From Escherichia coli (lineage in GTDB: Bacteria; Pseudomonadota; Gammaproteobacteria; Enterobacterales; Enterobacteriaceae), in the NCBI RefSeq assembly GCF_003334405.1, contig NZ_QOWM01000010.1: 64,000 nucleotides of DNA, one strand, 5' to 3'. Each line of letters opens with the position of its first letter. The stretch's first letter is position 1. Shown here piece after piece: positions 56,170-59,503 of the stretch. The notes below the pieces were generated by a model, which had not been told where the DNA came from, did not search any database, and was given only the letters and a program-made list of their open reading frames with translations. A program made the translations under genes and the position numbers.

Positions 56170-57585
56170 TTATTTCAGCCCCAGAGCGGCTTTCATGGTG
56201 TAGAAGAGATCGGTCTGGTCGGTCAGTCCAACAACATTGGCGGCATGCGGGCCATACGCCGCAATACGCAACTGACTGCCGGTATGTTCTTGTGAATCCT
56301 CTTCGGAGTTCCCGTAACTCATCACCATCACTGCGCCATCTTTGGTATTTAGCGCCTGGGTGAGGCCCGGAGCTTTGGTATCCGGCGCAACAATCTGGCT
56401 GGCGTGGGCGTGATCAGCGGTGACTATGACCAGCGTGTTACCCTCCTTTTTAGCGAATTCCAGCGCCCGTTGTACGGCTTCATCGAGATCGACCGTCTCG
56501 CCAATTTGCCCACAAGGATTCGCAGCATGATCCTGTTTATCGATTGACGCACCTTCAACTTGCAGGAAAAAGCCTTTCTCATTTTTACTCAACAATTCAA
56601 TGGCTTTGTCGGTCATCTGCGCCAGGGTTGGTACACTGTCATTACGTTGCGGATTTGGCGTACAGGTGACTGCGGGCTTATCGATATTGCCATGGTACGT
56701 TGCTTTCGGTCCTAGCCAGCGCACTGGCATATTGCCGTCAGCAAACAGGCCAAGCAGGGGTTTTTGCTGATTCGCTTCCGTCACCGAATTCAGTGAGGCA
56801 GCATCGCTCACCAACTGATAACCACGCGCCTGTGCCTGTTCACGCAGCGTTTTTCCCTGCCATTCACCAGCGGTTGCCGTTTCAGCAAAGGTTTTTGCGC
56901 CGCCGCCAAGCGTAACGTCGGCACGAGCGTTAAGCAGCTGTTCGGTAATCGATCCTTTTCCGCCTTTTTCCAGAGCGTTACCCGGACATTTTTCACTGGT
57001 CGCGCTCGGACCGTAGCATTTGCGCGAGGTCACATGTGCCACCAGCGCAGCGGGCGTGGCATCCTGCAACTCTGCGGTAGAAACGTTACCGGTCGCCAGA
57101 CCTGCGGCTTTTGCCATTTCCAGAATCGTTGGGTGATCTTTTTCGTGAATATCGACGCCCAGCGCGCCGTTATAGGTTTTGACACCGGTTGACCAGGCGG
57201 TTGCTGATGCAGCCGAGTCGGTGACGTAGTCCGGTTTGCCGGTTTTTTTATTCAGCGCATAGTGAGTGTATTGCCCGGTAAGCGGTAAGGCATCTATACC
57301 TTTAAAAAAGCCGCCCGCACCTTCGGCATAATTACGTGCGGCAGTAATTTCCGAGTCCCCCATCCCATCGCCAATCAGCAAAATAATATTTTTTGCAGGT
57401 TTATCGCTAAGAGAATCACGCAGAGCGGCAGTCTGATCACCCGTTAAACGGCGAGCACCGCCGGGTGCAGTAATATCGCCCTGAGCAGCCCGGTTTTCCA
57501 GAACAGGCATTTCTGGTGTCCGGGCTTTTGTCACAGGGGTAAACAGTAACGGTAAGAGTGCCAGTGCAATAGTGCTTTGTTTCAC
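56170..57585 (-). CDS. phoA: alkaline phosphatase (471 aa, GTG start)
   Basis: ORF track 56170..57654; known GTG start at 57583..57585 gives (M)[34 protein letters not shown]; active-site DSAAS motif. Confidence 0.95.
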
Positions 57586-57647
57586 TTTATTTTCTCCATG
57601 TACAAATACATTAAAAAATAAAAACAAAGCGACTATAAGTCTCGGCC

Positions 57648-57665
57648 GTGACAACTTTATGACAG
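57648..57665 (-). promoter_or_regulatory. Pho box of the phoA promoter
   Basis: Minus strand CTGTCATAAAGTTGTCAC about 60 nt upstream of the phoA start, with a TATAGT -10-like element downstream. Confidence 0.7.
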
Positions 57666-57685
57666 CTGTTGAAAAGATTAACTTT

Positions 57686-57946
57686 TTACTGACGAGGATG
57701 CTTCAATAACTTCTTTACGTAATCGCGCAGCAGCTCCGTATCGTCGTCAGGAATGCTGGCATCGGGCTTTACCTCGTACAGCGCCCCCTCTACCTGATCA
57801 ATCAACCGCTGTTGGTCATTTTGCGCCATATTGCGAAGCATTGCAGTGACGATAATCTCCAAAGCTTCTACCTGCGCACACAGTTCTTTCGACTCTTCTT
57901 CTTTTTGGGCAAGCTTAAATAACAACTCAGCAATGAGATTTTTCAT
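57686..57946 (-). CDS. iraP: anti-adapter protein IraP (RpoS stabiliser)
   Basis: ORF track 86 aa ([22 protein letters not shown]), coiled-coil. Confidence 0.92.
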
Positions 57947-58408
57947 GTCTGTATTTCCTTATCCAAAGTATGGAGAAGTTAACATTATGTTTCACAACTT
58001 CATAGTGTCTGGAAGTATTATTTTTATGACAAAGGAAATACTTTGCGCAAATATTTTTTGTTTGATTACCAGCGAAACGTTTCTCTTATTTAAATAATTA
58101 CCCACACAAAATATAGGCTTTTAATTATCAACCTTTATTATAAATAAAAGTTATGAAATATATTCTCTTCGTTAACTTATAATTAAGAGAAAAAAACTCA
58201 CCGCATGGCCATTTAAGCCAGGAATAAATTAGCTTCCCGTTCATCATTTTTGTGATCTTGCGCACATCTTTGAGATAACGCACTTTCTTCACCAGTACGT
58301 TGCACGCTTTGTCAGCAGAAGATTGCAACAATCTTTCAGAAGGCCGCGAATCCCCCGTTTTGTCGTGGTAATGTATGCACTTTGTGTTAGACGGGATAGG
58401 TTTTTAAG

Positions 58409-59503
58409 ATGGAAAAACTGCGGGTAGGAATCGTTTTTGGTGGTAAATCAGCGGAACATGAAGTGTCTCTGCAATCGGCAAAAAACATTGTCGATGCCAT
58501 TGATAAAAGTCGCTTCGACGTTGTGCTGCTGGGCATTGATAAACAAGGGCAATGGCACGTCAGCGATGCCAGCAATTATCTGCTAAATGCAGACGATCCT
58601 GCCCATATTGCGTTGCGCCCTTCGGCGACCAGCCTTGCGCAGGTGCCAGGTAAACATGAGCATCAGCTTATCGACGCGCAAAACGGTCAGCCGTTGCCGA
58701 CGGTGGATGTCATTTTCCCGATTGTCCACGGTACGCTGGGCGAAGATGGTTCCTTGCAGGGAATGCTGCGGGTCGCCAATTTACCGTTTGTAGGTTCTGA
58801 TGTTCTGGCTTCAGCAGCCTGTATGGACAAAGATGTCACCAAACGTCTGCTACGCGATGCCGGGCTGAACATTGCGCCATTTATTACCCTGACGCGCGCC
58901 AATCGTCACAACATTAGTTTTGCCGAAGTGGAGTCTAAACTGGGGTTACCACTGTTTGTAAAACCGGCTAATCAGGGCTCTTCTGTTGGTGTCAGCAAAG
59001 TAACCAGTGAAGAACAGTACGCAATTGCCGTCGATCTGGCGTTCGAGTTCGATCATAAAGTGATCGTTGAGCAAGGGATCAAAGGTCGTGAGATCGAATG
59101 CGCAGTTCTGGGCAACGACAATCCGCAAGCCAGCACCTGTGGAGAGATCGTACTCACCAGCGATTTCTATGCCTACGACACCAAGTACATTGACGAAGAT
59201 GGCGCGAAAGTGGTAGTTCCGGCAGCCATTGCGCCAGAAATCAACGATAAGATCCGGGCGATTGCCGTTCAGGCTTATCAAACGTTGGGATGCGCAGGCA
59301 TGGCGCGTGTAGACGTGTTTTTAACCCCAGAGAACGAAGTGGTGATCAACGAGATCAACACCCTGCCTGGCTTCACTAATATCAGTATGTATCCGAAGCT
59401 GTGGCAAGCCAGCGGTCTGGGTTACACCGATCTGATCACACGTTTGATTGAACTGGCGCTGGAGCGTCACGCTGCGGATAACGCATTGAAAACCACAATG
59501 TAA
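58409..59503 (+). CDS. ddlA: D-alanine--D-alanine ligase A
   Basis: ORF track 364 aa, ATP-grasp fold, recognised as DdlA. Confidence 0.96.

Follow-up and report, generated by a model that had tools for sequence, protein, structure and literature searches.

We propose that the divergent spacer between iraP and ddlA in Escherichia coli is regulatory DNA that does not code for protein, and that the 67-codon open reading frame (ORF) running across it is, with high probability, an accident of sequence. Since a conserved island within the spacer is homologous to the promoter of an MFS gene that other genera carry at this locus, the spacer appears to be a deletion scar from which coding sequences were lost and in which a CRP promoter was kept.

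The spacer lies in a 64-kb window, by which we mean the whole stretch of DNA that was analysed, and the coordinates of its features are given in Table 1. The initial annotation described an AT-rich divergent spacer of 462 bp at 57947..58408 that is unusually long, and this description is correct, as the GC content is 0.342 vs. 0.516 for the window and the spacer exceeds all of the gaps left by a crude gene call that mis-assigned iraP (largest gap 459 bp, largest divergent gap 447 bp, median 64.5 bp). It is 100% identical to nucleotides 400924..401385 of E. coli K-12 MG1655 (NC_000913.3) in reverse orientation (window position = 459332 - K-12 coordinate), and hence the K-12 equivalent of the ORF is 401001..401204(+). 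The spacer is found in 5423 of the 5426 complete E. coli genomes with 90-100% identity, while its AT-rich core is only weakly conserved among Escherichia and is hit by an IS1 insertion in some strains. The Rfam covariance models gave no structured-RNA match to positions 57000-59500 on either strand (E up to 1), and a scan for consensus promoters and terminators was uninformative, with three promoter-like sites vs. 2.5 expected. One hexamer from that scan, CATAAT at 57984-57989, was rejected because it is incompatible with both of the mapped iraP transcription start sites (TSSs).

Table 1. Features of the iraP-ddlA spacer and its neighbours, in window coordinates
Feature	Position	Strand	Remarks
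phoA	56170..57654	-	
iraP	57686..57946	-	
iraP-ddlA divergent spacer	57947..58408		462 bp, 34% GC
iraP 5' leader	57947..57968	-	Shine-Dalgarno-like AAGGAAA; invariant in Escherichia
Proximal iraP promoter	57969..57984	-	TSS 57969; 23 nt before ATG
Candidate proximal iraP extended -10, TGtTAACTT	57976-57984	-	predicted hexamer
Distal iraP promoter	58013..58026	-	TSS 58013; 67 nt before ATG
Candidate distal iraP -10, TAAAAA(T)	58021-58026	-	predicted hexamer; AT-rich discriminator after it
AT-rich core	58040..58200		22-32% GC; 22% at ~58050-58199
RbsR-type (LacI-family) operator-like palindrome	58069..58088		TAAGAGAAACGTTTCGCTGG in the iraP direction
67-codon TTG ORF	58128..58331	-	very probably a chance ORF
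Conserved island: CRP site and 32 nt	58219..58266	-	putative relic promoter, toward iraP
-10-like hexamer of the relic promoter, TAATTT	58226..58231	-	predicted; TAAAAT in other genera
CRP site, TGTGATCTTGCGCACA	58251..58266		9/10 half-site positions vs. TGTGA-N6-TCACA
Candidate extended -10 of the ddlA promoter, TGgTAATGT	58366..58374	+	predicted from sequence
ddlA TSS	58381	+	SMRT-Cappable-seq (PMC6131387 supplement); 28-nt leader
ddlA	58409..59503	+	

The 67-codon ORF and its annotation

The ORF at 58128..58331 on the minus strand has 67 codons and a product rich in Lys, Tyr and Phe (20 of the 67 residues), as had been stated initially, and the suggestion that it is a chance product of AT-rich sequence is upheld by its length, its substitution pattern and its broken frames in relatives. 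Among 5000 dinucleotide-preserving shuffles of the spacer, 13.4% contain an ORF of 67 codons or more, and 213 six-frame ORFs of at least 67 aa are present across the window. The sequence upstream of its TTG start (CTGAAAGA) has no Shine-Dalgarno element, and Pfam and NCBIfam searches with the 67-aa product gave no family match. A search of 5.8 billion proteins recovered homologs in 56 clusters, 55 of which are named E. coli, Shigella or Escherichia sp., the lone exception being an ENA entry with 36% query coverage. In many RefSeq genomes of E. coli, PGAP calls the ORF as the hypothetical protein WP_001300163.1, but no gene is annotated at this position in the curated MG1655 record and the call is therefore a product of the pipeline rather than evidence for a gene. 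WP_001300163.1 resembles the typical spurious 'hypothetical protein' of PGAP in every respect, as it is a short intergenic ORF that is annotated by the pipeline, absent from curated K-12, without a family, with homologs bound to the species and without expression evidence, and nothing sets it apart from such calls. We conclude that the 67-codon frame is no gene and that its annotation in RefSeq is spurious.

The initial annotation also pointed to the conservation of the frame and to ribosome initiation as informative, and both speak against translation. A scan for IraP relatives in a single genome of each species gave 80 loci, among which the frame fails in all six of the other Escherichia lineages. 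Four of these have premature stops, which fall after 18 codons in E. albertii and Escherichia sp. E1V33, after 24 codons in a locus titled E. coli E69 and after 44 codons in a locus titled E. coli SCPM-O-B-8794, while MOD1-EC7003 is frameshifted by a 1-nt deletion in a T-run and the ORF of E. whittamii is shorter with a diverged C-terminus. Frameshifted alleles also occur inside E. coli/Shigella (P0048, with 30 member sequences, P0054 and P0032), and in strain Ec-U7 an IS1A element in the AT-rich core cuts the ORF short. The minimum numbers of substitutions at codon positions 1, 2 and 3 in seven Escherichia sequences are 40, 44 and 36, and thus show no periodicity, vs. 27, 8 and 196 for ddlA and 9, 9 and 41 for iraP in the same seven genomes. 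The ORF region has accumulated 0.59-0.60 changes per site, which is close to the third-position rate of ddlA.

As for initiation, the Ribo-RET peaks tabulated by Stringer et al. (2021), which represent growing cells in one growth condition, include the start of iraP (4.29 RPM) and nothing on that strand between yaiZ and iraP; none of the possible N-termini of the ORF (MLQSSADK, MMNGKLIY and MNGKLIY) has a peak. The Cappable-seq map (M9-glucose, growing cells) contains only three same-strand TSSs from 398889 to iraP, at 400543, 400561 and 400587 of U00096.2 (window 58013, 57995 and 57969), and hence none upstream of the TTG. Two shorter frames were considered and rejected. The one that begins at the internal ATG ATG (MMNGKLIYS...) has few changes, most of them non-synonymous, and no initiation peak; in both E. 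albertii and the locus titled E. coli E69 it runs for only 9-11 codons, and its nucleotides are conserved intergenic promoter DNA in other genera. The other, a 37-aa GTG ORF at 57992..58105(-), has lost its frame in other Escherichia.

Promoters and regulatory sites in the spacer

That the spacer is promoter and regulatory DNA for iraP and ddlA, as was initially thought most likely, is supported by the mapped TSSs of both genes and by a CRP site with a measured affinity. SMRT-Cappable-seq gives a b0381 transcript at 399790-400951 on the reverse strand of NC_000913.3 (PMC6131387), and thus a single ddlA start at 400951, which is window position 58381 and lies 7 nt from the end of the candidate extended -10 element TGgTAATGT. 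The surrounding ddlA promoter block (rc columns 1-82) is conserved across genera from Escherichia to Kosakonia and has only 10 changes in 63 nt among Escherichia. There are two strong starts for iraP. The distal one is found at 400543 of U00096.2 by Cappable-seq (score 298) and at 401318 by SMRT-Cappable-seq (PMC6131387), and the proximal one at 400587 (score 168) and 401362, respectively, by the same two methods (PMC6131387). At the distal promoter CATAAAAATA does not vary among Escherichia, and columns 421-462, which cover the proximal promoter, have 1 change in 42 nt.

Both of these starts (58013 and 57969) also give rise to iraP-phoA transcripts. The iraP promoters are reportedly activated by ppGpp/DksA, a finding that is attributed to Bougdour and Gottesman in 2007 and to Girard et al. 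in 2018 and is summarized in PMC10948607. Both iraP TSSs are preceded by an A/T-rich -10 element and discriminator, which fits promoters of this type; we infer the exact hexamers and the match of 58013 and 57969 to the published, named iraP promoters. In addition, an in-silico study with FITBAR places a strong predicted site at 58093-58115, inside the AT-rich core, and the transcription factor is probably NagC, as the neighboring top entries in the table are promoters of the NagC regulon.

The CRP site lies within codons 22-27 of the 67-codon ORF. It appears in Table 1 of a 2026 Footprint-seq preprint as 'ttTGTGAtcttgcGCACAtct', centered at 401077, with a Kd of 1.2 nM in vitro and an assignment to ddlA / iraP, and the preprint labels it novel, meaning that no site had been described within 500 bp. 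Across seven Escherichia lineages its half-sites are invariant and its N6 spacer is variable. Its center is at about -122 from the ddlA TSS and about -246 from the mapped iraP promoters. A promoter directed from the CRP site toward ddlA was considered and rejected, as there is no suitably spaced -10-like element in that direction and few regions of the spacer vary as much as the ddlA side.

The other candidate regulatory site is the RbsR-type palindrome. In the iraP direction TAAGAGAAACGTTTCGCTGG matches the rbsD operator TCAGCGAAACGTTTCGCTGA, as read from MG1655, at 17 of 20 positions, with one half-site perfect, and in the form of an 18-mer with two mismatches it is the sole such operator match in the window vs. 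0.06 expected. In 60 of 80 loci, which include Escherichia, Salmonella, Citrobacter, Enterobacter and Kosakonia as well as Klebsiella oxytoca, the 16-bp core AGARAAACGTTTCGCT keeps an identical spacing to the iraP ATG, while the surrounding bases are unconstrained, and among Escherichia only 3 of the 20 operator positions vary vs. 34 of 60 flanking positions (p = 0.0016). Like the rbsD operator, the candidate site is a 16-bp pseudo-palindrome centered on CG in the style of the LacI family. Unlike that operator, which overlaps the promoter or leader, it is located about 65 nt upstream of a TSS (its center is 65.5 nt from the distal iraP start), which is a position typical of activators and makes simple repression unlikely. 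Binding by RbsR at 58069-58088 is suggested by this resemblance, and the paralogous PurR or Cra might bind there instead. The published summary of a genomic SELEX analysis gives five RbsR sites only. In Salmonella, deletion of rbsR, like deletion of iraP, lowers RpoS protein with rpoS transcription unchanged, by a mechanism that was left open (PLoS Genetics 2024), and a direct link between RbsR and iraP would fit this effect.

The initial annotation did not deal with the make-up of these regulatory elements or with the probable origin of the spacer as a deletion scar that retains an orphaned CRP-dependent promoter.

Probable origin of the spacer and its putative relic CRP promoter

The distance between ddlA and iraP is 450-464 bp in Escherichia vs. 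1.6-2.4 kb in most other Enterobacteriaceae. The extra DNA contains an mdtG-like MFS gene (403 aa), usually preceded by an extensin-like gene (227 aa), and both are oriented in the direction of iraP, as in Salmonella and Yokenella. The extensin-like and MFS ORFs are present in about 60 loci and neither is found in any Escherichia; with the MdtG model NF007372, for which the cut-off is 571, the MFS protein reaches 543 bits. In cross-genus blastn comparisons the spacer aligns only at its first 82 nt, on the ddlA side, and at its last 140-210 nt, on the iraP side. As a deletion scar, the spacer would consist of four pieces, namely, the block with the ddlA promoter, a class-II-type CRP promoter that the lost MFS gene left orphaned, AT-rich filler that evolves rapidly, and ancestral sequence upstream of iraP. 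The last of these carries two promoters with AT-rich discriminators and a putative RbsR-type operator, which lies about 65 nt upstream of the distal one.

The piece that has outlasted its gene is seen as an island of conservation made up of the CRP site and the next 32 nt, in which 9 of 48 sites vary among Escherichia, compared with 61 of 96 sites in the immediate flanks (Fisher p = 4e-7). The conservation ends abruptly at rc column 190, where the predicted transcript would begin, and the ddlA side of the CRP site has 0.81 changes per nt. Within E. coli itself the contrast is weak, as the island is identical to that of K-12 in 79% of the genomes vs. 67% for the left flank. The 23-mer TCACAAAAATGATGAACGGGAAG can be placed with at most five mismatches in 48 of 81 loci, each time on the strand of iraP, compared with a total of 0-1 hits for 20 shuffled patterns. 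The upstream regions of the MFS genes contain a perfect (10/10) CRP site in about 34 loci from most genera, followed by AAATATGATGA(AC/CT)GGGAAGATAAAAT, and TGTGCGCAAGATCACAAAAATGATGAACGGGAAGCTAATTTAT of E. coli is the homolog of this module. Where the MFS gene has been kept, the CRP site is about 95-140 nt upstream of it.

In class II CRP promoters, such as galP1, CRP is centered near -41.5 and takes the place of the -35 element. The E. coli island is like these promoters in having a near-consensus CRP site and a -10-like hexamer without a -35 element, and the class II-like geometry predicted for it recurs in the MFS promoters of other genera in the alignment. It differs from them in that its original gene is gone, no start has been observed, the -10 element is degenerate and the spacing, 27.5 nt from the CRP center to the start of TAATTT, is about 2 nt shorter than in the textbook case. 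The hexamer is aligned to GATAAAAT of Salmonella, Citrobacter and Enterobacter; TAATTT is weaker than TAAAAT and is replaced by GAATTT in two Escherichia lineages. A start is predicted at about 58217-58219, which would place CRP at -39.5 to -41.5 depending on the length of the discriminator. There is no TSS at this position in the Cappable-seq map from M9-glucose, where glucose represses CRP activity, and none in the SMRT-Cappable-seq maps from M9 and rich medium, a method that captures only transcripts longer than 1 kb. From the pattern of conservation we infer that the relic CRP promoter remains under purifying selection in Escherichia. Most likely it fires toward iraP when cAMP is high and so adds a carbon-starvation input, and this is the least certain step of the argument. 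Two further candidates near the predicted start were rejected: a 73-nt hairpin downstream of it (z = -2.65, equaled by 4 of 200 shuffles), the stem of which is lost in other Escherichia, and a sigma-54 promoter at TGGC...GC (58205-58220), where the elements are not spaced correctly and conservation is lacking.

The most serious alternative, which we regard as unlikely but by no means negligible, is that the CRP site is outside any working promoter and either acts on ddlA or iraP from a distance, in an architectural, bending or cooperative role, or is a high-affinity relic with no function. The lack of a TSS at the predicted position in the available maps and the weakening of the -10 element relative to other genera are in its favor, as is the finding that the 19 nt separating the -10 element from the CRP site (ATGATGAACGGGAAG) are as conserved as the CRP site itself, both in Escherichia and in the other genera, which suggests that a second protein binds between the two. 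However, such a role does not explain why the island stops exactly where a class II transcript is expected to start, why it is asymmetric toward iraP when the ddlA side is highly variable (0.81 changes per nt), or why in the other genera the module stands as far upstream of the MFS gene as a promoter would, and in a relic with no function the difference between 9 of 48 variable sites and 61 of 96 in the flanks would not persist.

The relic promoter also bears on the two explanations that would give the ORF itself a coding history. A real, young small protein specific to E. coli/Shigella and expressed in unsampled conditions would account for a frame that is intact and annotated by PGAP in most of the E. 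coli genomes sampled, at 97-100% identity, and for the good conservation of its first 37 residues among E. coli alleles. However, the CRP site and the relic promoter underlie codons 22-38, and hence account for the conservation at the N-terminus, whereas codon periodicity is lacking, the frame is broken in six other Escherichia lineages, and within the species there are frameshift alleles with dozens of sequences (P0048, 30 members) and an IS1 insertion. Its TTG start is without a Shine-Dalgarno element, an initiation peak or an upstream TSS on the same strand, the only plausible promoter in the region (predicted TSS ~58218) would start inside the ORF, downstream of the TTG and of both internal ATGs, and the length of the ORF is reached by chance (P = 0.13), so that a young protein is extremely improbable. 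Only marginally better is the case for a decayed remnant of the lost extensin-like or MFS coding sequence, which we consider very improbable. It would agree with the location of the ORF in the lineage-specific middle of the spacer, where other genera carry both genes, but tblastn searches with the 227-aa and 403-aa Salmonella proteins against the Escherichia spacers (word size 2, E up to 10) returned only noise, the best E value being 0.75 in alignments of at most 33 residues with frames and strands mixed, no significant similarity at the profile level linked the translated spacer to either protein family, and the portion of the ORF with homologs elsewhere corresponds to intergenic promoter DNA rather than coding sequence.

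Possible implications for the control of iraP

Regulatory spacers with a chance ORF are a kind of feature that is already known, to which the relic promoter and the conserved operator add in a small way that can be tested. For annotation, the lesson is that WP_001300163.1 should not be counted as a gene in E. coli genomes. The relic CRP promoter, if it is selected as the conservation suggests, clearly illustrates how a promoter can outlive its own gene.

The two sites might act together. The MFS gene would have been deleted in an ancestor of Escherichia and its CRP promoter kept as a third, cAMP-responsive promoter of iraP, while the RbsR-type operator, which is present in most Enterobacteriaceae, would make iraP a direct target of RbsR independently of the CRP promoter. 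That both hold, with a co-opted CRP promoter reading into iraP and direct RbsR control of iraP jointly linking cAMP and ribose to RpoS stabilization, is a tentative reading of the sequence to which we give a rather low probability. If true, this wiring by CRP and RbsR would also explain why RpoS drops in the Salmonella rbsR deletion strain with no change in rpoS transcription. With CRP and an RbsR-type regulator as candidate inputs to iraP, the carbon status of the cell would be tied to the proteolysis of RpoS.

Gene content and insertions between ddlA and iraP

In most Enterobacteriaceae an mdtG-like MFS gene lies between ddlA and iraP, usually with a gene for an extensin-like protein of 227 aa 5' of it, as seen in Salmonella arizonae and at about 60 further loci. 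Both genes are absent from Escherichia and from three Citrobacter genomes, C. amalonaticus S646 is without the MFS gene only, and the extensin-like gene alone is missing from about 12 loci. The lineages without the MFS gene still keep the CRP promoter module, in Escherichia the proposed relic promoter of that gene. In E. coli Ec-U7 the spacer carries an IS1A insertion, and the ORF's hypothetical protein has many "partial" copies, from draft E. coli and Shigella assemblies, that stop at contig breaks; together these suggest that this site in the AT-rich core is a recurrent target of IS insertion.

Features of the ddlA-iraP spacer and of the corresponding loci
Feature	Coordinates	Remarks
Palindrome resembling an RbsR operator, 16 bp, AGARAAACGTTTCGCT	window 58069-58088	sequence likeness and conservation
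Predicted binding site, candidate NagC	window 58093-58115	AT-rich core; FITBAR 2010, in silico
Imperfect inverted repeat, UUCUCUU...AAGAGAA	window 58154-58200	- strand RNA; 3' of predicted relic TSS
IS1A insertion	L084 1789-2486	E. coli Ec-U7; ~window 58167, AT-rich core
Extensin-like and mdtG-like MFS genes	L014 641-1324 and 1493-2704	Salmonella arizonae

Elements of the AT-rich core and an odd allele

The FITBAR-predicted site is poorly conserved among other Escherichia; its factor is probably NagC, given the neighbouring entries in the FITBAR table. The inverted repeat has a folding z of -2.65 as - strand RNA, and its stem is not kept in other Escherichia.

One database "allele" of the ORF (P0016) has SVSYTHLRAHETVLQ... 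as its C-terminal end, which we take to be a translated Tn5/Nextera mosaic-end adaptor; if so, contamination has entered the database as protein sequence.

Regulation of iraP and phoA

The RbsR-operator-like palindrome is kept 5' of iraP in 60 of the 80 Enterobacteriaceae loci compared (L003-L082), at about -137 to -113 relative to the iraP ATG. RpoS protein falls in Salmonella delta-rbsR mutants, a drop that is unexplained (PMC10965054) and that could be linked to this palindrome. Both iraP TSSs give iraP-phoA co-transcripts (window 56170-57946), flagged as a novel operon by SMRT-Cappable-seq (PMC6131387), and hence part of phoA transcription may start within the iraP-ddlA spacer.
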